This document shows, one piece after another, positions 1 to 25,424 of a stretch of 41,751 nucleotides of DNA. Below the pieces are notes generated by a model, which saw only the letters and a program-made list of their open reading frames with translations, searched no databases and was not told where the DNA came from. The position numbers and the translations under genes are program-made. Every line of letters starts with the position of its first letter. Position 1 is the stretch's first letter. Where the stretch lies: positions 1 to 41,751 of the forward strand of contig ML002324.1 of NCBI GenBank assembly GCA_003614675.1, written 5' to 3'. The stretch comes from Dimargaris cristalligena. Its lineage: Eukaryota.

Positions 1-2687
1 GCGGCGAAGTGGTCGTTACTAGCTGAACATAATGAATAGGAATGCCTCCCAAGGGAAGTTGGGGTAAAGGAATGTTCAGGATACTTACTATTCGTTATAG
101 AAGTGTATGAATACGCACAAATGGATAGGTGGTTTATACGATGCTAAATTTAGCCACCTAAAGCGGGCGATATGCAGCAACCGAGATTATATTTCCTGGA
201 TAATTTGCTCACACCAAGCTTATATGGATACTATACCATTACCCACTTGCGAGAGTTGACACACCCACACACACATGTTGGCTACATTTCCCAGACATTT
301 CGCCTGGCACTTGTCATCGGTTTGATTGTTCTGGCAATGCCAAATGCAAATCTTCGTCGAAGTGCCGAATAGCCACCAGTTCTACCTTAACAGCAAACAT
401 CGTTCGGGTGGTCAAAATGGCTTGTGATGGGACTTTCTTTCCAACCTGATCAGTTTTACTCCTCGAAAGGGCGGGATGAACGGTAGGACATGGCAGTCTC
501 AACCAATCCCTCACAGTGGTCAAAAGGGAAGAAATTTGTGGGGTTTACCTAATATTTACATGGCTGTATATCCATAATCTTGTTAGTGCGAAAATTGCTT
601 GTTGTTCCCCACTATGTTTTCCATGGATATATTGATATAACAAGGGAATGTCTAAGTAGGATTTTCGAAAACACAAATTTCGGATAGTATATCATCATAT
701 TCCCAGGTTACGTTGCCTTAGGTGTGTAATAAGATATATGGTGATATTACGGTATAGGAAAGATGGAGGGGGGCATGGGCCAGAAGACGTTGGTTAGATC
801 AAGAGGGGTCGCGTACACTTCTGGTTTAACCAGATATTATATTTGAATTGCGATGCCCTGCCACCCGTGGTGGCCCACTAACTCCAAATAACATTCATTT
901 AACGTTTACACCTGCCAAGGTACACCCAAGGCGACCTACCCACTCAAAATATGGGATACCTGCCATCGCAGATTGCTCAAACAAAATATTATGGAAACGC
1001 ATCATAGATAGATTGTTATTCCCCTGAAGGCGATGTGATAAGGAGAATGGGCGATAATACTACCAGCACTTTTCCTTTAGTCCAAAAGCACTGGGTAAAA
1101 TGACTCTACTTTCTTATTCAATTCCTAAAAATTGACTGTGACTTTTTGGAGTAGGAGGTGTCATGTGCGTCTAGTTCCCGCAAGTCGAACCCATTTCGCA
1201 CTTAAATCAGTCGCTTATAAGCCGCTCTCGGATCCGTAACACTATTAACGACCCCCCTAGTGCCTTTTCATTTCCTGCTGATTCTCCTGAGTCGTTATTC
1301 CGGTTATTGTTGTGATTATTACTATTTCTTTTGCAATACTGATGGTATTCGGAATTCTAGTATTTCCCATAGTGAGCTTCATATGGGCCTAACTAAGTTA
1401 CCCTCGCATTTCTTATGACAATATTTCTAATTCCGCCCTTTCTTCCGGGGCACGATGCTATTAGGTCTGAAAATTTTAAGGTATCGAAGTCTTGTAAAAT
1501 GAACTAAAGCAAGATACACATTTATACCTGATTAGATTACGAAGGTTTACTATAGAGATCCCCGCTCGGGGCCATGGGCGAATATATTGAATACTAAATA
1601 CAGGCAATCTTCTCATGTGTAATTCGTAACCAACATGATACATAGGCCCAGTCCACATACAGTCGGCTTGATCGCTGCCTATCTAATATATGTATTGGCC
1701 CTTTTTATTAATAACTAAAAAGTATATCAATTTCTTAACATGCTTTCTGTCAATATCTTAATTTGAGTATCCAGATGCGCGGGCTCTTGGGTCGAAGTAC
1801 ATAAACCACTTACCGTGTCTTGTATGTCCAAGCAGCTAAGTGTTATCCTTGGTCGGTATTGTACCTTATTAGGCGGAAGGGTAATAGCCCAATAGCATTT
1901 GCCTCCATTGCCCAGTCTGGTAAACCCTGGCTAGCAAGGCTGGTGCATAACTGACGTGTAGTTCCCGGATATAGCAGGTACCATAGTGCGAGCGTGGTGG
2001 GTTGGGGATGAGATAGAGCTGCGGAGTGAACCACCCTTGTGACCTGGCCTGGCTTTATCTGGTCGGTGACTGTAGGGCGGGGCTTAAGGGATTTATAGCC
2101 CACCATCATCGTCACCCGCCTCAGCCTGCGGAGGGAAGCACTGCACCAGTCAAGGATGGCGTCAACCATGTCGGGTGTATATTGTGGTGACCAAACAATC
2201 TGCGGTAGCATTTAACAACTAGTTTATACGCGATCGCCCTGTCGTTGTATGCTATCTCAAATAGGCCCTAATAAGAAACCCTAGATAAAGAGGCCAACTA
2301 CCACCGTTGGCGGGCATAATGCGTGCATGGTACTTTCTGCCAGCTGGTCTTTAATAGAAGGTATATTATTCTGGGCCAGGGAGAGAAAACCATTATAAAC
2401 ATTTCTGGATATTCGTGGGTATATGCGGTCAAATACCGCCCCGCCTTTGAATCGCCCGGATTGGTCCGCTAGGGCATATATTCTTTGTTTAGCTCCCTCC
2501 CTCCACTTATTTAGCGGTCGCTATTCCCCTCACGTTGGTCTTGAGCCTATCCCATTCCCTTTACTTTAGTCCACTCTCCGCTCATTCCCTTCTCTACCCT
2601 ACTCTACTTTCCTCCATTTACACACTCCTTATTCCTTTATTGCGTCTCCTCGTGTTATCACTGCCCTCCTCGTCGACCTAAGTGCAC

Positions 2688-3737
2688 ATGTCCGCCGAGA
2701 CCAGTGTTCTGCTCGGACTACGGTTCAAAAAGGCGGCCAGGGAAATACAGTCCCTCACCGCTGCCTTTTCGCCAGCCGTTACCCTCGACCGCAAACTGCA
2801 CCTCTATGCGCTTTTCAAGCAGGCCACCGAGGGTGACTGTACTTCCTCTAAGCCGGCCTTTTTCTACGCCGTTGCTCGCACCCGCTGGGAAGCCTGGAAC
2901 GGGCTGCGTGGTCAAACCAAGGAACAGGCCCAGGTTCGGTATATCGACGTGACTCTTGAGGTAAGCATAATCGCCGTGGCTTGGTCTCTTCGGATTATTC
3001 CTTGATTTGATAACCATGGGGGAATTTGACTCTTCGCCATCTAGTGACTGTGGGACTTTTCACTGTAACCGTACCAGTATTAACGGCGGGGTGAGAGGGG
3101 ATCAAGGATCAGCCGGAAACTGCACCGAACTGGTCGTGGTGGGAGTGGATGGTAAAGCCATTGTTGTTGGTGCATAATAATAATAGCGGTCCGCCTGTTC
3201 CCCGCTCAGTGCACTTATTTGCCTGTTTATTTGGGTTCTCTAAAGAACGGCCGGGGGTTATGTAAGGCCTAATGTGCTTGGAGGGGAGGGTTGAAGCCCT
3301 GACAGATACCGTATTTCGATGTAGTAAATAGCATGTGTGAAGTATAGGGTGACCTGTCTTTTTCCCACCCAGCGGCCTCCGTCGCTAATTCACACTGGGC
3401 CATTGTGCTTGATCACTGTCTCATTTTTGCCTCTCTTGGAGGTGAGGTCCGAGTATCATACTGTGATCCGGCACATCTCCCCACCCTCCTGTCCCTGCTG
3501 ATTTATTGTAATGTCCGTCTTTGGGCCATTGTTCTCTTCCCACCGCAGATGGGCCACCTGCAGAATGAAGGAATATGCCTAGCCTTCCGGCCCTGCCGTT
3601 TAATAACCCCGAATACCCGACCATTCTCTCCACCTGTGCTTTGCTTGTTCCTAACTCCCCCTACTTCACCGGTCCGAATTTATTCTATTCATTGTCCAAC
3701 GCTGTAGTACGTCGAACAATTGTTTAATCGACTGTGA
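2688..3737 (+). CDS. Short ACBP isoform join(2688..2960,3708..3737), 100 aa, ending ...YIDVTLEYVEQLFNRL*
   Basis: Branch-like CTAAC at 3651-3655. The first AG downstream of it is TAG at 3705-3707. Phase-0 continuation TAC GTC GAA CAA TTG TTT AAT CGA CTG TGA gives a protein of normal stand-alone ACBP size. Confidence 0.55.
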
Positions 3738-6700
3738 CCGCTCTTCAATAATTTTCTTTTATTATCTATCAAACCATCAATATTATTGCTTCCTAGGTCC
3801 TCCACGACCTTTCCGATAGCGATCCCCGTCGTACTGCCATACCGGAACTTACTATTAAAGAAACTTCCGATACCTCAACTGAATCGATGCAGTACTCCAC
3901 CGTCAAGACATCTATTGCCGACGCCATGGCGAATATCACCGGGGGCGAGGGAGGCACGAACGCCGGCCTCAGTGACTCGGAGAGCTCTGGTGGCCGCAAG
4001 GATTTGATGGATGACCAGTCGTCCTCCGGCTCCACCCACAGTTCGCCGGTCCTTGTGACTGGCTCAGTGACTCCAGCGACTCAACTTATTCGTGCTTCAA
4101 CCTTCTCCTCCCCCCAATTACCCTCAGCCCGAACGTTCAGGTCTTCTCGTTCATCGCCGCGCCCGACCTTCTCGTCTATATCCCTGCCCATAACCTCAGT
4201 GACTACCGCCACTTTAACGGACTCGTTTGACCAAAAACGAGCTCACTCGGTGAGTGCCTCCGTCGTGACAAGCTCGACCCATTGGGAGCTGCAGTCCGAT
4301 TTTACTGGGCATTCCGAGGCACATGTCAATGAGATGGACCGCATGGTACCCGCTCCAGGTTCAACCTCGATGGACAGCAAAATGGACCGGCCAAGCCTCC
4401 CGGCGTTTTACGGAAGCCAACCCTTCTCCGGAAACCCCACCACCATTCTTCCGGTTAGTTCGGTTATTAACACCACCGAAATTACCGAAGTGAATGTCAC
4501 TGCTTCTCGCCCTGTTGGCCCTGCCTTCGGTTTCAGCGAATCAGTTGGTTTCAATGTCTCTGCGTCACTCCCGGTGACTAACACCACCGAAGTAACCGAA
4601 ATAAATATCACTGCACCAGCCCTGGTGAGCCCCACCGTCGGCTTCAGTGAATCCATCGGAATCAATATCAACTCCTCCGATTTCATTCATTCACACACCA
4701 ATAAAACTGAAGCCGCCGAAGCGAATATCTCAACCTCGCATTCAACCGACTCGGCCATTAGCACCAAGGCCCCGGTATCCTTCTCGGTTAGTCCGATCAC
4801 CGACCTTACCGATACCGTTGGGGTAAATATATCGGTCCCCTTCCCGGTCAGTTCCGCTATTGGCTTCTTGGAAACCCTGGCGAGCAATGTAGTTAACCGT
4901 TTCCCGGGTACTTCAAGCTCTAAGTCAACCGTGGAGAGTGAGACGAGCGAGGCAAATCTCGTTACCACCCATAGCTACGCCTCGGTTGTGAGTAACCAGA
5001 CTGGCCAAGCCGAAGTGTATATCCCTACTGTCGTGCGGGTCAGTGAATCGGCGATCACCCACACTGGCCAAACCGTTACGGACTCGATCATTCCTGTGAG
5101 CCTTGATGCGGCCATTGGATTCGGCGAAGCTGTCAAAACAAATATGAGCACTCTCGCCCAAGTCGGTGGCGCAATCATTGCCGAAACTGGCGCCGCCTAT
5201 ATTAGTGCTGCGACCCCCTATTTAGTTGACCAGTCTACTAGCAATATGCAGGCATCGCAAATTACCGTTGATGTCCCCTATCCCATTGGATCGATTGCCA
5301 GCATCGGTGGGGCCACAGACATGCATACTTCTACATCCTCGCATGTCAGGGATTCTTTCACTAGCCAAATCGAGGCTACTAATACCAATACCATGGCTTC
5401 GTATTCCACTAGCGCAATTGCAAGCGTTTCACAAGCATCGGAGGTCAGCGTCGATGCTCCCTATCAAATTGGCACTATTATCGATATTAGCGGGGCCACG
5501 GACATGCACACTTCTACGTCCTCTCATTTCAGGGACTCGGTCACTAGCCAAACCGGGATTACCAATATCAACATCACGGCACCGCATTCCACTTCCCATA
5601 CCATTAGCGAAACGCACGTGTCCGAGAATTATATCTCGGCTCCCTATCGAATCGGCACGCTTATCGGCGTCGGCGGATCCACTGATATGAAATACACTTC
5701 AGCATCGCGAGTCGGTGGTTCCCTTGTTACCGAGACCAATATTTCTAGTGACAATTCCACAGTCCCGTTTTCCACTCATCAGATTACAGGCGAAACACAG
5801 GGGTCTGAAATTAACGTCACAGCCCCCTATCGAATCGGTACAGTTGTTAACGTCGGCGGTGCCGCAGTTGTGGATACACATATGACTTCGCATATCAGGG
5901 ACTCGACCACTAGTCATACCGAAGAAGATGGCATCCACATTACCGCCCCGCACTCCACTATCCATTTTACAAATGATACACGCGTGTCAGAAACTGGCGT
6001 TGATATCCCCTATCGAATTGGCACAGTTATTGGTGTTGGTGGAGCTACGGACATGTACACTTCTACGATCTTGCATGCTACGGATTCGGTCACTAGCGAA
6101 ACCAAAATTATCAACATCAATCCCATGTCACCGCATTCCACCAGCCGGGTCACTAGCGAAACGCAAATAGCCGAAATTAATGACACGGCCCCCTATCGAG
6201 CTGGCGCGGTTGTCAGAGTCGGCGGCTCTACAGATATAAGTTACGCTTCATCCTCACACGCCAGCGGGTCGGTTATTCCGGACACCAATACTTCTGGAGT
6301 CAATATCACGGCCCCCCATCGAATTGGTACGGTGTTCAGTACTGGCGGTGCCACGGACATGCACACTTTGACGTCCTCTCATGCCAGGGACTCGATCACT
6401 AACCAAATCCAGAATACCAATCTCAATATTACGGCACCATACACTATTGGTCAGGCCACCGATGATACAAGGGTTTCGACAATCAGTGTCGATGTTCCCT
6501 ATCGGATCGGTACGGTTGTCGGCATCGGTGGAGCCAAGGAAATGGGTTACTCTTCAACTTCGTATATCAGCGGATCGGCTATTACCGAAACTGGTATTTC
6601 TGGTATTAATATCACGAGTCCGTATTCCCCCGGCCAGTCTGCCAGCGATTCCCGGATTTCGACAATCAGTGTTGATGGGCCCTATCGAGTTGGCACAGTT

Positions 6701-9700
6701 ACCGGAATAGGCGCTGCGAAAGACATGGGGTATATCTCGGCCTCGCATGCCACAAACTCGACCACTAGCCAAACCGAAGTTACCCATAAAAATACAACAT
6801 CATCGTATTCCGCTGGTCATATCTCAAGCAATACGCAAGGGTTGGAGATTGATATCACAGCCCCGTATCGGATCGGCACGGTCGTCGGTATTGATGGATC
6901 GGCTATTGCCGAAACTGGGGTTGCTATTACCAATACCACTGCCTCGTATTCCACTGACCAGACCACCAGTAATGCACGAGTGTCCGGGATAGGCATCGAC
7001 ATTCCCTATCGAGTTGGCACAGTTGCCAGTATTAGTGGAGCGAAGGATATGGGGTATATTTCGGCCTCACATGTCAGCGGGTCGGCTATTACCGACACTA
7101 ATACTTCTGGAGTCAATATCACGACCCCCTATCGAATTGGTACGGTTGCAGGTGCTGGTGGTGTAACGCACATGGATGCCACTGCGCCCTCTCATATCAG
7201 CGGATCAGCTATTACCGAAACCGGGGTTGCTAGTGTCAATACCACAACCCCGTATTCCACCAGTCAAACCGCCAGCGATACCCTGGTGTCGGGGATCTGT
7301 ATTGAAGTGCCCTATCGAGTCGGCACAGTTACCGGGATTGGCGGAGCGAAAAACATAAGTTATATTTCATCCTCGCATACCAGCGGATCAGTTATTACCG
7401 AGGACGATATTCCTGGAAGCAATAGCACGACCCCCCATCGTATTGGTACAGTTATTGGCGTCGGCGGTACCGCGGGCATGGATCCCACTTCATCCTCGCA
7501 TGTCAGAGACTCGATCACCAGCCAAATCCAGAATACTGGTACCAATATTACGGCACCGTACTCCACCAGCCAGGCCCTTAACGAAAATCGCATATGGGGG
7601 GTTAGCATCGATGCCCCTTATCGGATCGGCACGGTTATTGGTGTTGGCGGAGTCACTTATACAGATACCAGTACATCTTCACATATCAGGGACTCGATTA
7701 CAGGCCAAACCACTGCCACCAGTATCAGTATCACGGCACCGTACTCCTCCAGTCAGATAGCCAGCGAAACACATGTGTCAGAAATTAATTTTGATGCACC
7801 CTATCGAATTGGCACGGTCACCGGTATTGGCGGGACCACGTACACAGATACTAGTATGTCTTCACATATCAAGGACTCGATTACAGGCCAAACCGAGATT
7901 ATCAATGTTGATATCACAGCTCCGTATTCTATTGGCACGGATACCAGCGGTACATGGGTGCCGGGTATTGGTGTCGCTACCCCCAATCGGGCCGAATCAT
8001 CTTTGAGTCAAACTGACATCACTTTGGTCAGCTCTTCGGTTTCCACGACTGGTGGCCCGGCCTTTAGCATTGGTGGCAGTGCTGAGCTGAATATGGGCAC
8101 CTCCCGACCCTTAGGCCCGACCACTAGTCAGGCTGAAATTACTTCGGTAGCCGTATTGTCACCCACACCCTGTGGCCTGAGAATCCACGGTTACGGAAAT
8201 TCAGGAGCACACGTAAAGGATTCCCGCCCAGTAGGGTCGGTCAGCGGTCAAACCGAAACTATATCGGTGACTACCCATGGTCCTAAGCCCTGCGGTCCAG
8301 GCATCATTATCGGAGGCGACGTGAGATTTGATGTCGGATCTACTCACACGACGAGTTCCGTCGCTGACCAAACAGATATTACATATTTCAGTAGTTCGAC
8401 TCCCAAGCCCTGCGGTTCGGGTGTCATCATCGGAGGCGATATCAGATTCGGGACGGGAATTTCTCACTCCACGGGCTCCATTACAAACCAAACAGGTATC
8501 ATATCTGTGGGCGTTTCGACTTCTAAGCCCTGCGGCCTAGATCCCATTGTCGGGGACGATGTAAAATTCGGGGTTGGACATGCCCACTCGACGGGCTCCA
8601 TTATCAGTAAGACAGATACCATATCTATGGATATTTCAACCCCTGGGCCTGGAGGTTTTGGCGTTAGTGTCCATAGCAACGCTGGATTGAATAGTGACGG
8701 TCGTTACAATACAGGTTACGTACCCGGACCGACCAAAATCACCGTGGTTGATGCCTCACACCCCAAACCTACTCTCCCGCCTCGCCACTTCGGCGGATAC
8801 TCCGAAACCGAGTTGGACAACACCCACACGGTCGGGTTTATCACGAGCCATGGTGGAATTACGACGGCTACTGCTCCAAAATTCACTCCGTATAACCCAG
8901 GCCAGAGTGTATATGGCAGTGTAGGTGTAAATCCTGGCAGTTCGTATACCACGAGTTCAACCTTCTCCCAAACCGAGATTACGTCAATTAGCGCTGTGGC
9001 ACCAAGCCCATGTGGCCCGGATATTGCTGTTGCCGGAAACGCCGGTGCGAGTCTTGGTAATTCCCACGCTGCGGGATCCGTCACTAGCCAGACCAAGACT
9101 ACTTTAGTAGATAGCTTAAATTCCAAGCCTTGTGATCCAAAATTTGGCATTGGCGGCAGTGTGGATATTAATATTGGCAATACTAATTCGTCGAGTTCCG
9201 TTGTCAACCAGACAAGGACCACTTCGACGCACATTTCGACACCCAAGCATTGTGGACCGGGTTATAGTGCCGGCGGGGGTACGGGGCTGGATACTGGAAG
9301 TCCTCGTCCAGCTGGTATCATTGTTGGCCAAACCGAAATCACAACAATCAGTACGTCACCCTCCAAGCCGTGTGGCCCGAGTGTCGGTGCTGGTGCCCAC
9401 ATTGGATTGACCGGCAACGTTACTTACCCCAAGAGTTTGATCACTGGGCAGACCACCACTACTTCGGCCAATATCTCAACACCTCAAACCTGTGGGCCAC
9501 CTCGCCAATCTAGTGGGTACTTTTATTCGGGGACTGGAAAGCAGATTTCAATGGACTCGTCCGTAACGCAAACCGAGATTACTACGGTGAATATTGCTAC
9601 ACCCAAACCCAGTGGCCCAGGTTTTAATGCCAGCGGAAGTATCGGACTGAATACCGGGGGCACTCACAAAGCTGGATCCACCGCCACCCAAACCAAAATC

Positions 9701-12700
9701 AATACCGTTGGGGTCTCTAATCCCATATCTAGTCAGCCAGGAATTATTGGTGTTGGTGGTGGTAGCGGAGTAAACGTGGGTAGTCCTCACCCTACCCATT
9801 CGACGGTCAGCGAGGTTGGTATTACATTAATAGAAGCAACTGTGCCCATGCCATGCGGCCCGAAAACCAACGCAAGTGGACACATGCCCAGGGTTAGTTC
9901 TACCACACACTCCAATCGCCCGGCTATCCCTCACACCGACATGAGTACTGTGAGTGCTACTAACCCGGTACCTGGTGGTTTTGCCCTCGGTATTAGTGGA
10001 AATGCTGGCTTTAATTCCGGTAACTCCCATGCCGCTAACTCGGTTGGAAATCAGACGAGTTATTTTGATATTGGGGCCACCACTCCTATGCCCTGTGGAT
10101 CTAGTACGGGCTATAGTGGAAATGGTGGTGGAATAGTCGGGAACTCCCACCATACCCATTCGACCACAATTCAATATGGATTGGATACCATGGATATGCC
10201 TGCTCCCATGCCGTACAACTCAAGCCATGGAGTCGTCGCTCACATCCCTTTGGATGACAGTAACCTTCCCCCCGCTGGCACTGGCACTGGCGCCAGCCAA
10301 GCCGGCCAGATAGGGACTGGTACATCCGGTACTATACATGGTGGTCAAAATATTGGGTTCGGCAGTCATACAGAGCTGTATGGCAGAGCTCCACACCCTA
10401 ATGCACCAAACGCCGGTCCAAGCAGGTTGCCTCAAGGGAATTATACTCCGACCCATATGACAGCTGGCCCGAAGGTTGGCTTTGTCGAATACAGCGACGG
10501 GTACGTGCCTATGCCGACCCCTAGTCACCCCAATATCGGATTCAACGCCAATGTTAGCGGCGAAAGTACTACATCTCGGCCAGATACCCAAGATGCTAGT
10601 TATTCTGGCCATGTCAACACTACTATTTCGGCTAATATGCCCTGTGGTCCATCCATTGGATTTTCCGGGCAAACCAGTACAACCTCCAGTGTTTCGTATC
10701 CTCCCCTCATTACCGCCGGCCAACCTGGGCCTGCTGGCGTGCAAGTGTCGATGCCCATGCCCAAGACTGGCGAGTCGACTATCTACATCGATGGCCACAT
10801 TGAATCGAGCAGTGGCGGCTTCCACCCTGGTCGCACGGTTATCGGCCAAGCCGGTATCCCTACGTCTGATGTTCTCGGCCCCACCCCCTATAGTCAGACC
10901 ATCGGGTTCAGCGGGCAAGTCACCACATGCGACAGCACTTTGCGACCCATTTATCCGACCTCTGGCGTATCCGGTACCACCGGGGTGAACATATCTGCCA
11001 CCACTCCCTGTGGCCCATCCACCGGTTTCAACCAAACCTCGGGAATGAATAGCTGGACTTCTCATACTGTAGGCTCCTCTGTTAATCAGATTGAAGTCGC
11101 TGGTGTGAACGTTTCAAGTATGTCTAGTGGCTCCACCACCCTTGGCTTTAGCAGTCACACTGGTATGAATACCACTACACCACGCCCTGCTCACCCAACC
11201 TTAAACCGAGTCCCTCATTCCGAATATATTCCGGCCTTCCCTATCCTCTCGGGCCAGAACCTCGGTCTTGGTGGACAATGGGATATAAATGTTACGACAC
11301 CTCGCCCACCCCACCTCGCCGTTAGCCAAACGCACATTCCCGACCCGAGAGGGCCTATGCCTAGCTCAGGTGGAACAAACATTAATCTCAGCGGTTACGC
11401 CGGGGCGAGTACCGGGGGCCACCATTCCGTACAACCGATGGTCTCCCAGACTGAGATTACTACCGTGAACATTTCGACACCAAGCCCACATGGACTCATC
11501 CGCCAAGACAAGACCCGCATCAATGTGAGTGGTGGCACCCCCCACCCCACTGTCTATCAAACCAACACCTCTGGTATCAACGTAGGCGCGACTATGCCCA
11601 GTGGTCCTGGTCCAAACTGGAGTGGCCAGACCAATACAACCATTGGGGGAACTCATACCGTTCAACCAGCTTTTAGCCAGGCCGGAGCTTCCACGTTGAA
11701 TATCCCAGTCCCAGTCCCCGTACCGCAGGGCCCGGGCTTCACCCACAGCGGAAGCATCGAGATTAGAGATAACACTTCCCAGGCAAGCGTCAATTTAGCT
11801 ACGCCTATACCATACGGCCCTAACCACGGTTCTGGCGGACATGTTGGAGTAAGTGGCAGTGTACCTCTTCCCGGTTCCATATATACCAACCAGACCAACT
11901 CTACGACCGTTAACGTGACTACCCCCCAGGCATGTGGCTCGAGTACGGGACTCGGTGGACATTCAGGGGTGAGTGTTGGAGCTACTCGACCTGGGCATCC
12001 AACCACTGTTCACACTGATATTACATTAGTTAGCGGGACGACTCCTACATCAAATGGCCCGACCGTTAGTATCAGTGGTTCTTCTGGAGCAACTGGCCAT
12101 ATTCCACCCCATGGCGGACCCGCCATCGTACCACCGGGGTATATAGCCGTGGCAGCGCCTTCAAATACCCCATGTGGTCCGCCTCGCGACTTCGGTAATC
12201 ACGGTGGCATGACCGGGACAGTTCCCCAACCTGGTAACCCAGTTACGTATCAAAATACCCATGGTAGTGGTGGTGGCCCTATCCCCGGCCCCTATGGGCC
12301 AGTCCATGGCCCCAACGGACATTTTGGCGCAAGTGGCAATGTTCCACATCCCAACCATCCAAATACCCACCATACGGACATTTCAGGCGTGCATATCATC
12401 AACACCACATCCAGCGGCTCGGGTGGTAACTTTGCTGGTCATGCCGGAGTGAACGCGACTACCGTCGGACCTGGTCGACCTGCTCCCAGCCATTCCCTTA
12501 ATGTTGGAGCTAATTGGCCCAACCCTATGGCTCCCGGTTTTAACGGACAAGCTGGCGTGGGTGTCGGGGGATCCCACCAGCAATTCCACTCAACAGCCAA
12601 TCAGGCTGGAGTGCCGGGTATCAGTATGGGTGCCCCTATGCCCCATGGTCCACCTTTCAGCCACGGTGGAGACGCTGGGGTAAATATATCTGCACCAGGT

Positions 12701-13060
12701 CTCCCTCCCCAATATTTTTCCACGACCGTAGAAGCTAGTATGGCGTCTGAGGCGGAACATACCATAGAGCTACTACAGACCCAGATGATGGCGCTCAACG
12801 AGCGAATTGAAATGCTCCGACACGATGCCCACGAGCGAAACAACCGGATCGTACGTCGTATATCCACTTTACGGGTCATTTTGAAAGCCAACTTCAGCCG
12901 CTTTGTGGTTGGCATGATTATACTGGCGCTTGTCATACTATTCCCGTACTGGCGGCGAAAGCGTTGGGTCAACCTGTCGCTGGGTAAGATTCGGGGATTT
13001 ATACCGTTCCTGCTCAACTATTTCATGGGTAAGTTCCTAGACACAGTCGTGTTTTTTTAA
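2688..13060 (+). CDS. Giant ACBP-domain tail-anchored protein (Atg37/ACBD5-like architecture), long isoform join(2688..2960,3797..13060), about 3,178 aa
   Basis: Exon 1 encodes an ACBP domain (KLHLYALFKQATEGDC...KPAFFYAVARTRWEAWNGLRGQTKEQAQVRYI) and ends GAG|GTAAGC in phase 0. The acceptor CCTAG at 3792-3796 opens in phase 0 into the frame of the 3887..13060 ORF (VLHDLSDSDPRRT...ESMQYST). The C-terminus has a coiled-coil-like segment (EHTIELLQTQMMALNERIEMLR), a hydrophobic helix (FVVGMIILALVILFPY) and a basic cluster (WRRKR). Confidence 0.75.
4445..12700 (+). repeat. Coding tandem-repeat array, roughly 60 degenerate units of 40, 41 or 61 aa, rich in Ser/Thr/Gly/Pro/Ile
   Basis: PYRIG-type anchors at 5276, 5459, 5642, 5825, 6008, 6191, 6314, 6497, 6680, 6863, 7004, 7127, 7310, 7433, 7616, 7799, 7922 (spacings 183 or 123 nt, one of 141). 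A PCG-type anchor position (motif degenerate in some units) recurs at an exact 120-nt period from 8168 to 9728 and continues with small indels to about 12650. Confidence 0.92.
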
Positions 13061-14694
13061 TGTTCATGCTCATATTAAGGGACTCTCCTCCTTCACAATT
13101 CATGCGGTTTGGGTATTATCCTAGTCGAAATCACTTTGTTAGATTGCGGCTAATAAATGTGAACTGCGACTAACCCAGCTTGCTCCAATTTCTATGATTA
13201 TACTCTATTATTATTAACTTGAATTGAACATCTCGATTCTCGGATTCGAACCATCTAGGCATGTTTCGGGCCCCTAGTAAAGTTTTCGGCCTAGGCTATA
13301 CCCAGCGACGCTGTGTCAACCACCCTTACTAACGGACGCTGCTTTTAAAAATTGCTCAAAGTCTAAACTCAACAGCGGTGTGTTATCCTTGGCAAGCACC
13401 TCCGAGTCCCATTGCCCGCCTACCAGCCCTCATATAATTACGCACATACCATTCGACTTTCAATGTTTACGCATCAGAAACCATTGACTTATATCGCTAT
13501 TGATTTTTACCTAGTATAATTTAGTTTATACATTTATTCCATCAGTGTAGCTATCCGATATATATATTTTTCATCAGGCTTGCTACCACCATCGATATCT
13601 GAATCTATACTACCTCTCAATGGTATTCTAAGTGAGAACATATTAGTTGGATCTATAAATATTACTTTATTAGGAATAATGAAACAAATGGTCTGGTAGA
13701 GTGGGACACCGGGGATTGTATTAGGTGTAAGCAGGAAGGACGGTGGATTTTACGTTTGTCGAAAGTTAGACTGGCATTTAGCTGTCGCTAGTATCAGCTT
13801 CCCGGTCAACGGTTATTATAGACGGGGAAGTATCTTTTATATGTTTGTTGCTTAGGTATTGTTCATTCTATCAATGAATATCTCGATATCCGCTTTCTTG
13901 GGCTATAGCAGCCCCCACTATTAGACTCTGCCCATACACGCTTGTAATTAACCTCGAACTAGATCCCCCAGAGGTTTTTATGTAGGTACTTATGGCTTTA
14001 CGAATAACAACAGAGTATACTAGTAGTAGACTAGTTTTATTGGGGGGAAATGTGTGTAGCTTCAACCTGAATCCACGTCACTGGAACTGGAATTGGCGAC
14101 TTCCTGGTATCACGGGACAATTCTAGCGCCTTAGTATTTTTTTTTCATCAGTTGTGGCTCTGTATAATGCGCAAGCCAACCCCAATATAATCCGCAGCAA
14201 TTAGTAATTAATGGCTGATTCGGCCGGATGGGAATATATTTCTGGTAAATGGCTAGAAATTAAGTACCACCAGTTAACGCATAGATTCAATGTATGCTGT
14301 TGTGGAGCACCACCATTCTAATGTATATGTGGGATATCTATTTTTTTCAGTAGGGCTGTTTCCAAGAGCCACAGAGATTAAGCAAGCAAGGCCTCCCTCA
14401 TTAAGCCATACTCCATGCTTGTGTGTAGGTAAGGTAGGTAAGAGGTAGGTAGGTGTAGTTCTCTAGCATCATTTACCCCAATCCATAAAAAAAAAACTCA
14501 TCAAGTACACATATAGTCTCGCTTGACTTGCGCAAGCTGCCCTTTTTGTGTTGTTCCTTTACTCTTCTCTTTCCTCCTTCACTTACTCCTTAGTGTCCTG
14601 TACTTTTGTTCTTCTTGAGTTGATTGTAAATTTGATCTCTCGCTCAATCTCCCAACCCAACCTTTCCTTTTCTACTTTAAGCAAAGCCACCATC

Positions 14695-15237
14695 ATGATC
14701 TTCAACTTCCTGAACACCTCCCGCGCCTTCGCTGCCCGCTCCGCCGGCCTCCAGCAGGTGTCTTTCTTCAGCACCTCCCGGCTTGCCCTCATGGCCTCCC
14801 GTTCCATTTACGTTGGCAACATTCCGTGGCGCTCGACTGACGAACAGATCCACGAGCTGTTCGAGACTTTCGGCCCCGTGGCCAAGTGCCACCTGCCCAA
14901 GGACCCCATGGGCCGCCTCAAGGGTATCGGATTCATCGATATGGCCACTGACGAGGCCGCCGATAAGGCTATCGAGCAGCTCAACGGCTACAGCTTCCTG
15001 GGCCGTGATCTCCGTGTGTCCTACAGTTTGAACGAACGCCGTTACACCCCCGGTAACTTCCAGAACCGCACCCCCCGTTTCGGTGGTGAGCAGCAGGAAC
15101 GTGGCGAACAAATGAGCCGGAGTTATAACAACAACAACCAGGCTTACGTGCGTCACAGCGACTACGCCCAGGAAGGTACCGACTCCCACAGTGAGCAGCC
15201 CACCGAGACCCCCTTCCCCCCTACCCAAAAGGAGTAA
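14695..15237 (+). CDS. Single-RRM RNA-binding protein with probable mitochondrial targeting presequence, 180 aa
   Basis: ATG at 14695. The N-terminus is rich in R/S/A/F with no acidic residues (MIFNFLNTSRAFAARSAGLQQVSFFSTSRLAL). RNP2 IYVGNI and RNP1 KGIGFIDM are present. Strong C-ending codon bias; no intron needed. Confidence 0.88.
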   Translation: MIFNFLNTSRAFAARSAGLQQVSFFSTSRLALMASRSIYVGNIPWRSTDEQIHELFETFGPVAKCHLPKDPMGRLKGIGFIDMATDEAADKAIEQLNGYSFLGRDLRVSYSLNERRYTPGNFQNRTPRFGGEQQERGEQMSRSYNNNNQAYVRHSDYAQEGTDSHSEQPTETPFPPTQKE

Positions 15238-16068: not shown

Positions 16069-17090
16069 TTAGTAAGGAGCGTATCCACCACGACGGCCCC
16101 TGTGTGAAAAAAATATAATCAGGCAATGCGCAAAATCGACCAAATGGAATTATACATTAGCAAAATAGATCTCGCCCATGTTGTTGTAATACATACACAT
16201 TGTATAGATATAGATATAGATATATACCGCTAAGCTGGGAGTACTGTCTCCACTGCAATTGACCTATACTTACCGGAAGAAGCTAGAGCGGCCCCGATAA
16301 CCGCCACGGAATGGCCGACGGCCACGCGAGAAACCTCGGCCACCGGGCCCATTGAACATCGGAATATTGGTCCGCTTGGGGGTGACCTTAATCTCGCGGT
16401 CGTGCAGTGCGGTGCCTTCGAGTTTCACGGCATTGTCGACACTTTCGGCCTCGGCGAATTCCACATAGGCAAATCCTTTGGGTTGTCCAGTGATCTTATT
16501 GCAAAGGATAGTCACCCGGTTGATGGTACCGCAGGGCTGGAAGAGCGCCTGGAGTTCCTCGGGCGTGGTGCTGTAATCCACGTTGCCCACGTAGACGGAC
16601 CGCGTGTCGATTTCCTCCTTTTGGGTGCTGACGGCCCCGGCGGCCGTGACGGCGGTGCCCTGGCTCAGCTCCCTCTCGGCCTCTTCCTGCAGCGTACGGA
16701 GCTTCGCGGCTTCCTGTTCCAACTCCAAAACGCGCTGCTTCATGGCTTCGATTTCCTGTACGGAGTAGAGAGTCCCATTCAAAAAGAAAACCGGAGGAAA
16801 GGTAGAACAAAAGAAGAAGAAGAAACAGTAAGTCAATGAAAATTGAGGGGGAATTTCTGTTAAGGATGGTGGTGAATACGGGGCTACCATGATGCTGGCA
16901 GTCGGAGTATAGGACTCAGGGAATGTGCGCGTGTCGGCCATTACTCTGCAATTCACTTGAAACTGCGGTCAGAGAATCGCATACATGGTGCCTTTGTGAG
17001 GGCCTGGGCTAATGCATGTGGGCGGACACTTACCGGATCGTCGACCATGAGGGTGGCAGGGTCGGGGGTGGTGATGCTTTGGTCGGTCAT
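16069..17090 (-). CDS. PAB2: Nuclear poly(A)-binding protein 2 (PABPN1/Pab2/Sgn1 family), complement join(17034..17090,16274..16755,16069..16099), 189 aa
   Basis: Coiled coil [35 protein letters not shown]...KGFAYVEF...[12 protein letters not shown] tail ending [10 protein letters not shown]. Two GTAAGT...CAG introns with consistent phases (0 and 2). Confidence 0.93.
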
Positions 17091-18095: not shown

Positions 18096-19301
<1,206 letters not shown>

Positions 19302-22306: not shown

Positions 22307-23677
22307 TTAACTATTAACAGCCGAGTCCACTTGATTAGGGGTGTATGGTTTGTTGATGCCAAAGTCGCCCGAGAAATCACTCCCGCTATCATCGTTACCA
22401 AACGGCTGGATGGCTTCTGCTGGACGGGTGTATTGGATGACGAGTCCCGCCATGACCAAACTGCCGAACACCGTCATGCCGATCACCACCAGATTCTGGG
22501 CCAAGAGGGACACCTGGGCCGCATCCAGCTGCCAGGAGACGGCGGTTCCAATGGACTGCACCAAAAACAAGAACCCCAAATGATGGTCCAGGGACTCCAC
22601 GTGGGGGAATACCAGGGTCAGGGCCCACAGGGAGAATGCGTTGATCACCGCGTCGAGGGCGCCCCACTGCATAAAGACGGCCAGTGGTCCGAGGTAAGCC
22701 ACCTGGGTAAAATCGACGAGCCGGCCCGTCCGCTGCCCATGGACTTGAATGGCCAAAGCCCCCACGTACGACGCGAGGACCATCACCAGGATGGCCGCCA
22801 GCAAGGTCAAACCGCGGAATCGCCGGGACCAGTGGGGGCGGTCCAGGAGCCAGCCCAGAACATAGGAACTCGTGAGGGAACTGAGGTAGTATACAATACA
22901 ATTGATGGCGCGCGTCCGAATGGTGAAGAGCGTGAAATTAAACCCGTTGAACTGGTAGGCGTAGTAGAATCGGGTGATGGCGAAATAGGGGATGAATAGG
23001 ACCAGGGGACCGTCGCGGGCCGCCCGAAACAGGAGCCTAATTTCGCGCCGCCAGCCCTGGAATTTCGGCACAACGATGGGGCTACCGTCGTCCTTGGTCA
23101 GGTACCGCGGCGACACCAGTAGGAGCGACAGCAGGACGGCCACAATGGTGACGGCCGTGGCCACGTAATAAGTGGCCAGACCCAAGCCGCGAGATGAGTT
23201 ACTGTAGTTGAGGCCCAAGGCCACCGCACCGCCCACCACACCGTTGAGCGACGCTACCAAGAAAAAAGTCGACAGATAAGACCCGCGCTGGGCCTCCTGG
23301 GGGTACGACACCAGCATCACCGACTGGATCATCCCGGACATGAGCAAACCAAAACCCTTTAGGGCCCCCGTGATCACGACCGGTGCGGGTTGGGGCCAGT
23401 ACGCGAACAAGACAAATGAGGCCATGAACAGCGTGTAGGTAACCGAAGCAATGAACATGGCCAGGCGCACGCCGAGGTAGTTGTTGACGCCGCTGACGAC
23501 GAGGCCCGCCACGCAACTGGCGATGGCCCCGGCGACGTTGGCCCGCGCTGATATGCTGCTGTCCATCAAACCCCCGCCGCCAACCCCCAGAACGGCATTC
23601 CAACTGGCGTTGATGCAGAGCGATATCAGAGCCGCGATTACCACCTGGCGGTAGGGGGTGTAAAACCTCGGGATCAT
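22307..23677 (-). CDS. UNC-93-like MFS membrane protein, about 456 aa, intronless
   Basis: Multiple hydrophobic helices. Motifs YTPYRQVVI...NAVLGVGGGGL, MLVSYPQEAQRGSYLS and YAYQFNGFNFTLFTIRTRAIN resemble fungal UNC-93-like proteins. First ATG in frame is at 23677. Confidence 0.85.
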   Translation of the reverse strand: MIPRFYTPYRQVVIAALISLCINASWNAVLGVGGGGLMDSSISARANVAGAIASCVAGLVVSGVNNYLGVRLAMFIASVTYTLFMASFVLFAYWPQPAPVVITGALKGFGLLMSGMIQSVMLVSYPQEAQRGSYLSTFFLVASLNGVVGGAVALGLNYSNSSRGLGLATYYVATAVTIVAVLLSLLLVSPRYLTKDDGSPIVVPKFQGWRREIRLLFRAARDGPLVLFIPYFAITRFYYAYQFNGFNFTLFTIRTRAINCIVYYLSSLTSSYVLGWLLDRPHWSRRFRGLTLLAAILVMVLASYVGALAIQVHGQRTGRLVDFTQVAYLGPLAVFMQWGALDAVINAFSLWALTLVFPHVESLDHHLGFLFLVQSIGTAVSWQLDAAQVSLLAQNLVVIGMTVFGSLVMAGLVIQYTRPAEAIQPFGNDDSGSDFSGDFGINKPYTPNQVDSAVNS

Positions 23678-25424
23678 TAGGCGGGATATGTTTGGGGTGT
23701 GGCCAACTGAGTTCCTGAATTTAAAATGGGTTAACTGGGCCGATGCAAAATGAAATAATAAAAAACAGTCACCGATTAGGAGCAGGCGGACATATAAAAA
23801 CACCTCAATCGACAGGCTGGGTTGAAGTGAAAATAGATTAATTAAAAACGGCGAAATTTATAACAGCAACAATGAAGCTTCAATTAGGAAAAAGTATGTG
23901 GACTAAATAAACACTTTACATAGCGAGCCAAAAAGAAACGTAGATTCGGGGCAATACCCCCATTTATAAACCCGCGTTCCAGATGGCTACGTCCCAGAAA
24001 AAACAGGGATGTGCAGTATATTCGTATATTGGGTAATCGAAAAGAGTAGTCCCGATACGACCGAGATATTCTACCCCAGGTATTTTTCAGACAAGTAGGT
24101 CTTTGTAGATGTAGTATTCGTATTTTTTTTTGGGGGGGGGAGGGGTGGATAGGTAAGGGGTAATACGAGTAGAGCATTCCCAGCTTACCCCAGATGTCCA
24201 TGTTCAATGGAAGCAATGGCGGGTGACCGATCGACTTTTTCATGTAGGCCAACCTTTTAATCCGTCACCAGTAATGGTACATATTTGGCATCAATTGTAT
24301 TTGTCAAGTAGAGTGCGATTTTATTCCACTCCAGGGGCGGAAGGGGATAAACCCTAATTACCGAGGCAGCTGAAGGGCTGAGGAAGGGCGGTCACTATGG
24401 GCAAACCGTTTGGTTCCTGGAATCTTAGTTGGGGGGTTCCCCCGTCCCCTGTTGGCCGTGTGCCTAATCCCTGTAAGTTACAGAATGCAACCAAGGGGCG
24501 AAGACGCGGTTTACCCAAGTGGGATAACCGTGCCCGGAATATCTCCGAATGGCTGAAAATGACCTTATTGAATACGTGGAACCAGGTAGTTTACGCTGGT
24601 TTATGGTGCATCTCGGTCGACTGCATCGAGAATACTCGAGGATAGCAAAGGGAGCCAAAGTAACGGGCGATGCAGGTCCGTAGACTTATAACTAACTGAT
24701 ACAAGTGGGCCACATTTTACCTGTATTTTCCTTATTGGGAATCTTGACTACCTTCCACCCGCTCGCCTTGTCCAACTATATTCGAGACTTCGACTTTTAT
24801 CACACCACTGGTCGACCCCCCTTTATACGAATCTGGATAGTTTATAGTGATAACCCGAATGGCTGGATAGCAGGCAGCTTATTGACTAGGATATATATTT
24901 GGAATGGCAACAGCGGATGAGTTCAAAAGTATGTGGGTTGCAGTCTGTGTTAAACAGGGGATTATTTTACTGGGATTAAGGTGTGATTTTCACCGAGGGG
25001 CCCCAAGTGTAAACAACAGTGCTGTCCGTTGACTACAGCCATTTGGGTGGGGTCGCAGTATGCCAGTCGGATCAGCCTATATTTAGGAAGCAGAAGCGAA
25101 TAAATCAAAAGAGAGCATCAGTCCGTGTTTAGCTTCACGTTGTGGATGTGATACTGGCTTTTCCAAATGGGTGTATTTCTCCCACCAAGGCTTTCCGTTT
25201 TTCCACCCCGAGTCCATTCCATTTGTTGTTGACCTTAGGTGACTTACCGACCCATTCCTTTGGTTACTTTTTACCTGACCACTCCCCTCCCTTCCCCTAT
25301 TATCTTGTATAACCCACTAGCCCCCCTTTTTATTTTTATTACAAAGGTTTCCATTTCCGTTCCATCGCGATCTTTCCCATACCACCTGTCCCTTTTTCAT
25401 TTAGTTTTTCTTCAATTCCCTACC

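Follow-up and report, generated by a model that had tools for sequence, protein, structure and literature searches.

A putative two-exon gene of Dimargaris cristalligena very probably encodes a tail-anchored Acbd4/5-family protein with a giant repeat linker

Gene structure

The window is the whole stretch of 41,751 nt of contig ML002324.1 (Dimargaris cristalligena) that was analysed. On its forward strand, a short exon containing an ACB domain is followed by a giant open frame of 3,087 codons (3797-13060), which begins 836 nt downstream of the ACB exon (Table 1). The exon ends as GAG/GTAAGC at 2960/2961. The TAG at 3794-3796 closes the giant frame on its upstream side and also supplies the putative acceptor AG; the first in-frame ATG (3887) follows after just 30 codons. 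Both parts were read as one two-exon gene (2688-2960 + 3797-13060), the product of which is very probably a tail-anchored Acbd4/5-family protein of 3,178 residues.

Table 1. Features of the putative gene; positions refer to the window, and frame residues are counted from the first codon of the giant open frame.
Feature	Position	Strand	Description
Exon 1	2688..2960	+	ATG at 2688; complete ACB domain; 273 nt, 91 codons, phase 0
Putative intron	2961..3796	+	836 nt; GTAAGC donor, CCTAG acceptor preceded by a T-rich tract
Conserved post-ACB segment	3797..3889	+	Codons 1-31 of exon 2, up to the first in-frame ATG (3887)
Non-repetitive S/T-rich start of linker	3890..4441	+	Frame residues 32-215; from translation and composition
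Repeat zone A	4442..5275	+	Frame residues 216-493; weak units of ~37-40 residues
Repeat zone B	5276..8008	+	Frame residues 494-1404; ~15 units of 61 residues
Repeat zone C	8009..12706	+	Frame residues 1405-2970; ~39 units of 40 residues
Helix / coiled-coil-like region adjoining the membrane anchor	12716..12901	+	Frame residues 2974-3035
Transmembrane segment FVVGMIILALVILFPYW	12902..12952	+	Frame residues 3036-3052; within the sole Kyte-Doolittle segment of the frame
RRKR basic cluster, 31-residue tail and stop TAA (13058-13060)	12953..13060	+	From translation

ACB domain and closest relatives

The Pfam family ACBP (PF00887) matches residues 12-88 of the 91 encoded by exon 1 with an E-value of 1.3e-23 and 83.3 bits, the cut-off being 28.3. 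The best of 20 PDB sequences was the ACB domain of human ACBD5 (3flv; E 6.2e-15), which aligns over 77 ungapped residues. ACBD4 is also ungapped over 77 residues; classical ACBPs align with four fewer residues. In the alignment, R-K of the exon-1 domain stands opposite M-M of ACBD5, the relevant Met being judged by eye.

An exhaustive HMMER search with the ACB exon against 1.84 billion representatives gave 3,185 matches at E ≤ 0.001, the best 150 of which form the comparison library. Among these 150 of 3,185, the top single-ACB match is P0015 (349 aa), with 57% identity and 101.6 bits to the ACB exon, and the second is P0018 (377 aa), with 52% identity and 90.7 bits; the next single-domain match within the same best 150 reaches 68.2 bits. 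P0015 and P0018 have the architecture ACB-linker-helix-TMD, and the N-terminal MSAE of the exon-1 product is common to P0018. By a crude test, 14 of the 149 matches in this library (the best 150 of 3,185) are ACB-TMD proteins, with lengths of 188-502 aa.

Homology at the putative splice junction

The putative splice 2960^3797 is supported by homology with P0015 and P0018. Residues 4-90 of P0001 align to P0015 6-92, and frame residues 1-31 align without gaps to P0015 94-124 (BLASTP E 0.022). Since the first alignment reaches residue 92 of P0015 and the second begins at residue 94, the two parts are contiguous. When the relatives were placed at all 3,057-3,068 offsets along the frame, the frame start (offset 1) ranked first for P0015 and P0018, with z-values of 6.4-7.7 and without gaps. 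Conversely, when the first 20 or 31 frame residues were compared with all 150 library proteins, the two best places were residue 94 of P0015 and residue 92 of P0018. The codons matching the relatives' post-ACB segment are located upstream of the first in-frame ATG of the frame. Using phmmer, the first 120 frame residues had no match among the 150 library proteins, and the N-terminal match of the giant frame was not reported by BLASTP with P0018.

The putative intron contains 12-16 stops in each frame; it has no second copy within the window and no Rfam match. GTAAGC directly follows the ACB domain, and only one other strict donor-like site occurs in the region 2600-4000. The tail VSIIAVAWSLRIIP, which would result from read-through past the donor, has no counterpart in P0015 and P0018. 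Within 140 nt of the acceptor, no branch motif of the CTRAY type was found; the nearest is CCTAAC at 3650, 142 nt away. The only other AG after this motif is at 3706-3707, and its use would lead to an in-frame stop after 9 codons and, thus, to an ACB-only product of 100 aa. The pyrimidine-rich stretch before 3797 resembles the one before the ATG of exon 1. An intron of 836 nt would be long for a filamentous ascomycete, a yardstick not calibrated on this genome.

The first-pass annotation had proposed splicing of the ACB exon to the giant frame within a single gene, pointing to the acceptor at 3796 being the frame boundary as well. These coordinates are present, but every TAG stop includes an AG, so the coincidence as such is trivial. 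What supports the join is the homology, which runs collinear with P0015 and P0018 at both termini and at the exact junction.

C-terminal helix, membrane anchor and tail

Residues 259-339 of P0015 match frame residues 2974-3054 with 44% identity (E 2e-22), and the C-terminus of P0018 matches the end of the giant frame with 43% identity (E 2e-21). The proposed similarity of this end to ACB-TMD proteins was thereby found. A local phmmer search with the C-terminus gave E-values of 1e-22 and 8.1e-21 for P0015 and P0018, respectively, and 5.2e-05 for P0087. In alignment A5, which covers the C-terminal region, 30 columns are invariant, among them those of LQTQ..ALNERI and LFPYWRR. A Kyte-Doolittle scan of the 3,087-codon frame detected a single hydrophobic segment (residues 3027-3054), and the transmembrane segment is kept in P0015 and P0018. 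The helix-like stretch is conserved with P0015, P0018 and P0087; over the 50 residues before the TMD, 12 of 14 heptad a/d positions are hydrophobic according to a crude count.

Of the coiled coil and single transmembrane segment with which the protein had been thought to end at WRRKR, a helix-like stretch and a single hydrophobic segment were seen, but WRRKR is not the terminus. RRKR directly follows the TMD, and 31 further residues extend to the C-terminus, among them a second, weaker hydrophobic/helical stretch. This tail aligns weakly to that of P0018 (..GKF).

Many Acbd4/5 members, though not all, carry an FFAT motif, which is non-defining for the fungal members. Using a crude pattern, three core-like matches were found in the giant protein, none of them with an acidic tract, and no FFAT-like motif was found in P0015, P0018 and P0087. 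According to passages of a preprint (10.1101/2024.06.21.599987), the tail that follows the TMD is longer in fungal Acbd4/5 proteins and includes a short helix, and K/R stands where animal members have the Met of helix 2. The 31-residue tail and the R-K opposite M-M fit the fungal Acbd4/5 subtype.

Repeat array

The linker of ~2,880 residues contains an array of ~2,750 residues, the repeats of which have units of 40 and 61 residues and are old and diverged. It is part of an uninterrupted reading frame of 9.2 kb. That a large repeat array lies between the ACB domain and the anchor, as had been noticed at first reading, is borne out by BLOSUM autocorrelation against shuffles, in which z reaches 20, the lags being 61 and 102 for residues ~400-1400 and 40, 80 and 120 for residues ~1400-3000. 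In zone A, lags 37, 40 and 77 give z-values of 3.6-4.9, and TRF reports a period of 111 nt with 1.9 copies and 76% matches at 4461-4666. The zone B unit (lag 61, z 18-20) is composed of a 41-residue module (..APYRIGTV.G.GG...SSH.RDSIT..) and a 20-residue module (NITAPYSTSQ..), as seen in the unit listing and alignment A4. The zone C unit is QTEIT.V..STPKPCGPG...GG......SH...S... (unit listing, alignment A3), and its repeats decay toward the C-terminus.

The inter-unit pS of 0.54-0.72 indicates that the units are old. The dN/dS ratio is 0.51 among zone B units (78 pairs) and 0.42 among zone C units (66 pairs). The array comprises 5.7% D+E, 3.4% K+R, 27.7% S+T, 12.8% G and 15.6% I+V. It has 63 N-x-S/T sequons compared to 37.5 ± 5.2 in shuffles, and none of 500 shuffles reached 63; the motif belongs to the repeat unit, so these counts are not independent. 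AF2 models had a pLDDT of 25 for zone B and of 42 for zone C, the latter with strands drawn about every 20 residues. The array has no relative in Pfam, PDB or Atlas and no confident AlphaFold model. No other giant Acbd4/5 member was found in searches which had weak power to find one.

Alternative explanations

Two products may be formed at the locus, i.e. a small soluble ACBP beside or instead of the giant protein. The ACBP would have 105 aa by donor read-through or 100 aa via the AG at 3706-3707. If it were formed instead of the joined protein, a giant tail-anchored repeat protein would start from Met31 (ATG 3887), using a promoter inside the 'intron'. The long gap of 836 nt lacking a canonical branch motif nearby, the AG at 3706-3707 being the first after CCTAAC, and the pyrimidine-rich stretch before 3797 together with the in-frame ATG speak for this, as does Neurospora leashin as a precedent, for which parts of PMC2690989 describe two transcription units in a giant frame. 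However, the 30 codons that run from 3797 up to the first ATG show conservation with the segment after the ACB domain in both relatives, at the exact expected offset, the strict donor (one of two in 2600-4000) directly follows the ACB domain, and neither relative has a counterpart of the read-through tail. Overall, two products are very unlikely; that both isoforms exist is doubtful though conceivable, and that the parts are never joined is unlikely.

The giant frame could also encode a secreted or cell-surface type I membrane protein of the mucin/adhesin-like type, in which case a signal-peptide exon was missed and the ACB exon is coincidental. The S/T/G/I/V-rich composition, the adhesin-like repeats and one TMD followed by a basic stretch agree with such a protein, and the enrichment of sequons would suit a glycosylated, non-cytosolic product. 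This reading is extremely improbable, given that the frame shows homology to ACB-TMD proteins at either end, starting on the N-terminal side with the first codon past the acceptor, that the gap is full of stops in all three frames and that no ATG-led hydrophobic stretch with a donor was seen in 3006-3796 when read by eye. Alternatively, the array might have expanded in a neutral, runaway manner, in a gene that is decaying or non-functional, and have no role of its own. The degeneration of zone C toward its C-terminal end, the lack of a confident fold and the failure of the (weak) searches to find array-bearing relatives would be in line with neutrality. It is nevertheless highly improbable, considering 3,087 codons free of stops despite old units, inter-unit dN/dS values below 1, and two conserved ends and two splice sites which are all intact.

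Family assignment and comparison with known systems

The gene is supported as a putative Acbd4/5-family orthologue, the linker of which is expanded to ~2,880 residues. Its ACB head, post-ACB segment and helix-TMD-basic-tail end are collinear with the relatives of 349-377 aa, so that P0015 and P0018 have all three conserved parts in common with the giant protein. The collinear homology at the exact junction also supports that the ACB domain and the tail anchor would reside on one polypeptide. The family label was derived from ACBD5 as the best PDB match, from the architecture and from Atlas cluster names, the latter as a lead only. The initially suggested Atg37/ACBD5-like layout with an expanded repeat linker is supported, the linker of the relatives having ~170 residues.

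Human ACBD5 and ACBD4 are tail-anchored peroxisomal ACB proteins, which act as peroxisome-ER tethers via FFAT-VAP. The giant protein would have the same order of parts (ACB, linker, coiled-coil-like helix, TMD, basic flank), and its ACB domain aligns to theirs without gaps and with equal loop length. In contrast to both, it bears a giant repeat linker and, past the TMD, a tail of the fungal type, and no FFAT motif was found by the crude pattern; sequence similarity is confined to the ACB domain. Among fungi, AcbdA connects peroxisomes with moving early endosomes. Compared by description, the fungal Acbd4/5 proteins AcbdA (AN1062) of Aspergillus nidulans, Atg37 of Pichia pastoris and Acbd4/5 of Ustilago maydis resemble the giant protein in the N-terminal ACB domain, the linker and the coiled-coil-like helix, and, in the passages describing them, also in a C-terminal TMD, behind which come basic residues and an additional tail. 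AcbdA is given in parts of PMC12383703 as a protein of 384 aa with an ACB domain, a coiled coil and a tail-anchored TMD targeting peroxisomes, and the coiled coil between ACB and TMD is used there as an Acbd4/5 criterion. Pichia Atg37 has 409 aa and Ustilago Acbd4/5 526 aa according to excerpts of the preprint 10.1101/2024.06.21.599987. These proteins differ in the linker, which has ~170-400 residues in them and ~2,880 here; the 3,178 aa of the giant protein are 6 to 9 times the length of the named members.

The first-pass annotation had been reminded of Leashin (Lah), without suggesting homology. In parts of PMC2690989, this Woronin-body tether of Pezizomycotina is described as having 5,936-10,821 aa and a linker which is highly acidic, PELS-rich and thought to be elastic. 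The reminiscence applies to the outline, i.e. conserved ends, a very long, poorly conserved and repetitive middle and, by the same portions of PMC2690989, an organelle of peroxisomal origin. It does not extend to composition: judged by these descriptions, an acidic linker is set against 5.7% D+E in the array, in which beta strands appear only in the low-confidence model. Furthermore, Leashin attaches to the organelle via WSC through its N-terminus, whereas the giant protein has its own TMD. Membership in Leashin / Lah, compared by description, was rejected since the ends have their homologues in ACB-TMD proteins and the array is not acidic.

Proposed function and significance

If it behaves like its family, the protein would insert post-translationally in the peroxisomal membrane by its C-terminal TMD, which has a strongly basic flank, and everything upstream of this TMD would face the cytosol. 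The membrane-proximal helix would pair two chains and the ACB head would bind long-chain acyl-CoA. Tentatively, the low-charge, beta-prone array may serve as a long spacer, holding the ACB head tens of nm or more off the peroxisome surface; such a spacer would lengthen the reach of a tether which in relatives connects peroxisomes with the ER or with early endosomes. Less likely than a spacer, and doubtful, is a dense surface layer on the organelle. It is rather unlikely that the array is a folded beta-rich rod with ~20 residues per rung, or a self-associating layer, instead of a floppy linker. A rod would form a rigid spacer of ~60 nm (2,750 residues / 20 per rung × 0.48 nm), or alternatively a surface coat.

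Proteins with the order ACB-linker-helix-TMD and normally ~350-500 residues are a known family; for the giant repeat array, no relatives are known. The protein adds a presumably cytosolic, uncharged, S/T/G/I/V-rich repeat type, which composition alone would file as a cell-wall mucin. Gene callers based on ORFs or short introns would report a small ACBP and a separate giant orphan protein instead of one gene; therefore, similar cases may be hidden in other fungal genomes. If the rod or layer is true, a fungal lineage would have rebuilt its single Acbd4/5 tether as a structural device on the cytosolic face of the peroxisome; a giant organelle leash would then have been invented independently of Leashin, carrying an acyl-CoA-binding head far beyond normal contact-site distances. 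In Acbd4/5 relatives, a linker a few hundred residues long determines how far the ACB head lies from the membrane. A member with a ~10x longer linker would be a natural test of whether linker length and stiffness set the geometry and reach of contact sites.

Proposed gene structure and splice sites

The window is a eukaryotic, fungus-like stretch, in which the remaining long open frames encode proteins with common housekeeping domains (see table below). Exon 1 encodes a complete ACB domain, its residues 12-88 matching profile positions 3-75/76 of Pfam PF00887 (E 1.3e-23). If the donor is read through, 14 extra codons follow before a stop, giving 105 AA. The 5' boundary of the giant frame is a TAG at 3794-3796, the AG of which is preceded by a T-rich tract; an in-frame ATG comes no earlier than codon 31 (3887). 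The gap of 836 nt between exon 1 and the giant frame contains 12-16 stops in each of its frames, and no copy of it was found elsewhere within the window. Since an Rfam scan of 2400-4000 (E ≤ 1) gave no match, an intron-hosted snoRNA was not found. The CTRAY-type branch motif nearest to the acceptor is CCTAAC at 3650, and only two AGs lie between this motif and the giant frame, the first at 3706-3707. Joining the exon 1 donor to this first AG would add nine codons and yield an ACB-only protein of 100 AA, hence, a short soluble isoform is possible.

Features of the window (residues are those of the giant frame)
Feature	Position	Strand	Remarks
Exon 1	2688-2960	+	ATG at 2688-2690, 91 codons, end ...GAG/GTAAGC at 2960/2961
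Giant frame	3797-13060	+	3,087 codons; by far the largest open frame of the window
Repeat zone A	residues 216-493	+	weak units of 37-40 residues
Repeat zone B	residues 494-1404	+	~15 units of 61 residues; lag 61, z 18-20
Repeat zone C	residues 1405-2970 (8009-12706)	+	~39 units of 40 residues (QTEIT.V..STPKPCGPG...GG......SH...S...); lags 40, 80 and 120, z up to 20
Stop-free frame within array	8716-9261	-	
Stop-free frame within array	10220-11113	-	
Stop-free frame within array	10461-10988	+	
RRM protein	14527-15237	+	
RRM protein	16270-16968	-	
Zinc-knuckle protein	18096-19301	-	
MFS transporter	22307-23857	-	
Cse1/CAS exportin	27096-29513	+	first ~33 profile positions must come from an upstream exon
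RRM protein	35442-37643	+	
UVB_sens/RUS-family protein	38952-40019	-	

A candidate in-frame intron of 57 nt in the tail behind the transmembrane domain (TMD), at 12984-13040 (GTAAGA...CCTAG), was set aside, since a weak alignment to the tail of P0018, a relative described in the next section, speaks for retention of the stretch. Its excision (a multiple of three) would cost the tail 19 residues and leave the frame and the protein end unchanged.

Relatives and homology across the junction

The ACB exon was used as query in an exhaustive HMMER search through 1.84 billion representative proteins and gave 3,185 matches at E ≤ 0.001, the best 150 of which were used as library. Many top-ranking matches are proteins with multiple ACB copies, which score high because the copies are summed. 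Among the best 150 of the 3,185 matches, the two best with a single domain were P0015 (349 AA, 57% identity, 101.6 bits, query 4-90 on 6-92) and P0018 (377 AA, 52% identity, 90.7 bits, query 1-90 on 1-90), and the third dropped to 68.2 bits. In both, Pfam places the ACB domain at the extreme N-terminus, and a hydrophobic segment lies close to the C-terminus. P0006 is a fragment of 81 AA, probably derived from a very short contig, which contains exon 1 residues 12-91 identically plus one V, with neither Met nor stop context; it is uninformative on spliced versus unspliced forms, because V comes next in both.

At the C-terminus, BLASTP aligned P0015 259-339 with giant-frame residues 2974-3054 (44% identity, E 2e-22) and P0018 246-329 with residues 2971-3054 (43% identity, E 2e-21). 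In the three-way alignment, 30 columns are invariant, among them those of LQTQ..ALNERI..LR and LFPYWRR. P0087 (458 AA), another library protein, matched more weakly (E 5.2e-05 in a small local database).

The homology at the junction is a stronger point for one gene than that of the C-terminus. Residues 94-124 of P0015, directly following its ACB domain, matched giant-frame residues 1-31 (BLASTP, E 0.022 for the whole pairwise search space). The end of exon 1 lies opposite P0015 residue 93, so that the ACB and giant-frame alignments abut without a gap. For a junction test, the segment behind the ACB domain of each relative was scored ungapped at every offset of the giant frame (3,087 residues). 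The top rank went to offset 1 for both relatives and both segment lengths, with z 6.4-7.7 over the four tests (see table below). In the reverse test, frame residues 1-20 or 1-31 were slid over all offsets of the 150 library proteins, and the top two positions were P0015 residue 94 and P0018 residue 92. A phmmer search of the 150 library proteins with giant-frame residues 1-120 gave no match, and BLASTP of P0018 against the giant frame did not report the N-terminal match.

Ungapped junction test with segments following the ACB domain
Relative	Segment (residues)	Score at offset 1	Best score elsewhere	Offsets
P0015	20	41	12	3,068
P0015	31	52	20	3,057
P0018	20	35	22	3,068
P0018	31	47	15	3,057

If the giant frame were translated alone, the 30 conserved codons preceding its first ATG would not be kept, and for exon 1 ending by read-through, the extra tail has no counterpart in P0015 or P0018. 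Against the join speak the blank phmmer search, the N-terminal match missing from BLASTP of P0018, the length of the putative intron, the distance of 142 nt between branch motif and acceptor, and the earlier AG. Judged from these comparisons, exon 1 and the giant frame very probably form one joined gene, besides which an extra short isoform or an internal start may be used. The single gene proposed by the first-pass annotation was thus supported by collinear homology to P0015 and P0018, both at the junction and at the C-terminus.

Family assignment

A search of the PDB returned the ACB domain of human ACBD5 as the best of 20 sequences (3flv, E 6.2e-15). ACBD5 and ACBD4 align ungapped over 77 residues, and classical ACBPs align over four residues fewer. 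An Atlas family match (score 0.88) was counted as a lead only. The AcbdA paper counts a protein among Acbd4/5 only if ACB domain, coiled coil and TMD are all present (PMC12383703). Kors et al. describe a single Acbd4/5 gene in fungi, a longer tail with a short helix behind the TMD, and K/R in helix 2 in place of the animal Met (10.1101/2024.06.21.599987).

In the giant frame, one hydrophobic segment was found (residues 3027-3054, Kyte-Doolittle). It is directly followed by RRKR and then by 31 residues that include another, less pronounced hydrophobic stretch. In the helix-like stretch preceding the TMD, 12 of the 14 a/d heptad positions are hydrophobic. In the alignment of the ACB domains, R-K of the query stands opposite M-M of ACBD5. 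The listed Acbd4/5 features are present in the predicted protein of 3,178 AA, the coiled coil as a putative one, with AcbdA, Atg37 and the Ustilago member compared by description only. A crude pattern for FFAT motifs with an acidic tract found none in the giant protein, P0015, P0018 or P0087. The ACB domain, the best PDB match to ACBD5 and the tail-anchor layout all argue for the Acbd4/5 family, to which the gene had been assigned in the first-pass annotation.

Repeat array

The conserved segment following the ACB domain is succeeded by ~185 non-repetitive, S/T-rich residues, whereupon periodicity extends from ~216 to ~2970, with a sub-period of 20 residues throughout. The zone B unit consists of a 41-residue module (..NITAPYRIGTV.G.GG.TDM..S.SSH.RDSIT.QT...) and a 20-residue module (NITAPYSTSQ..S.T.VS.I). 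Zone C units degenerate toward the C-terminus. The units of both zones are visibly akin (QTEIT..N.S/T.P..G...GG...SH..S.T). On DNA level, Tandem Repeats Finder reported two short arrays only, with 74-76% matches. For in-register units, pS was 0.54 and the median dN/dS 0.51 in zone B (78 pairs), and pS was 0.72 and the median dN/dS 0.42 in zone C (66 pairs, 37 of them with finite dS). From the unit divergence and dN/dS it follows that the array is old and no assembly artefact; it is open over 9.2 kb under moderate constraint. The long stop-free frames inside the array (175-297 codons) are most likely a by-product of its repetitive, skewed composition and not genes.

Residues 216-2970 comprise 27.7% S+T, 12.8% G, 15.6% I+V, 7.7% P, 5.7% D+E and 3.4% K+R. 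N-x-S/T sequons are enriched in the giant frame (3797-13057) with 63 versus 37.5 ± 5.2, none of 500 shuffles reaching 63; this count is inflated by duplication, because the motif (..NIT.P..) belongs to the repeat unit. The enrichment is odd for a protein expected to be cytosolic and would fit a glycosylated one.

Many 40-residue units of zone C contain one Cys in a K-P-C-G-P context (11 PCG-type motifs), and units lacking it have S, G, Y or H instead. Such evenly spaced Cys are unexpected for a cytosolic repeat. That they might be acylation sites near the acyl-CoA-binding head is pure speculation.

Searches for relatives of the array gave the following results. Pfam reported only NtrZ, at 18.3 bits and under the cut-off of 27.7. 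PDB profile searches with the unit alignments of zones B and C (A4 and A3) had no matches at E ≤ 1, and the Atlas gave no usable match for residues 596-1404. Metagenome scans confirmed none of 323 pattern matches for one zone B segment and none of 294 for the C-terminal alignment. AlphaFold2 models were built from internal-repeat alignments. Zone B reached pLDDT 25.1 and pTM 0.15, and zone C pLDDT 42.4 and pTM 0.34. Both models are of low confidence and, therefore, too poor for a fold search. Strands of ~10 residues every 20 residues in the zone C model are a hint at most.

Size compared to known members

Atg37 has 409 AA and the Ustilago Acbd4/5 526 AA as given by Kors et al. (10.1101/2024.06.21.599987). 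Named fungal members span 384-526 AA versus 3,178 AA for the predicted giant. In a crude test, 14 of the 149 library proteins examined combine an ACB domain with a TMD, at 188-502 AA. No published description of a giant Acbd4/5 was found; Supplemental Data 1 of Kors et al., which lists domain positions and lengths for 275 Acbd4/5 sequences, may hold longer members (10.1101/2024.06.21.599987). Homologue searches with the ACB exon against longer proteins (208 candidates), with the whole frame against proteins of near length (8,000 candidates) and with the C-terminal 138 residues against shorter proteins (224 candidates) were blank. As the last of these missed the existing P0015 and P0018, all three carry no weight on absence, and the power of the searches to reveal other giant members is weak.

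Proposed function

The architecture of the predicted protein and its homology were established at the sequence level, and the family suggests how it might work. The TMD and its basic flank (RRKR and three further K/R of the tail versus one D, net charge about +6) would insert post-translationally into the peroxisomal membrane, so that some 3,100 residues would stay cytosolic. The membrane-proximal helix would pair chains and the ACB head would bind long-chain acyl-CoA. With less support, the array may set the distance between head and membrane and the mechanics of the connection.

The first-pass annotation had compared the linker to Leashin, which holds in outline only. The Leashin linker is described as highly acidic and PELS-rich (PMC2690989), whereas the array is nearly uncharged. 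Its scarcity of charge and its richness in I/V/T speak against an entropic spring of the Leashin or PEVK type.

If the array is a coil, its contour length would be about 1 µm and it would typically span tens of nm; a beta rod built at about 20 residues per rung would measure about 60 nm. In either form, it would be longer than the usual gaps at contact sites. Such a length would suit the capture at a distance of partners, for example early endosomes, ER or lipid droplets, or the formation of a dense layer on the organelle.
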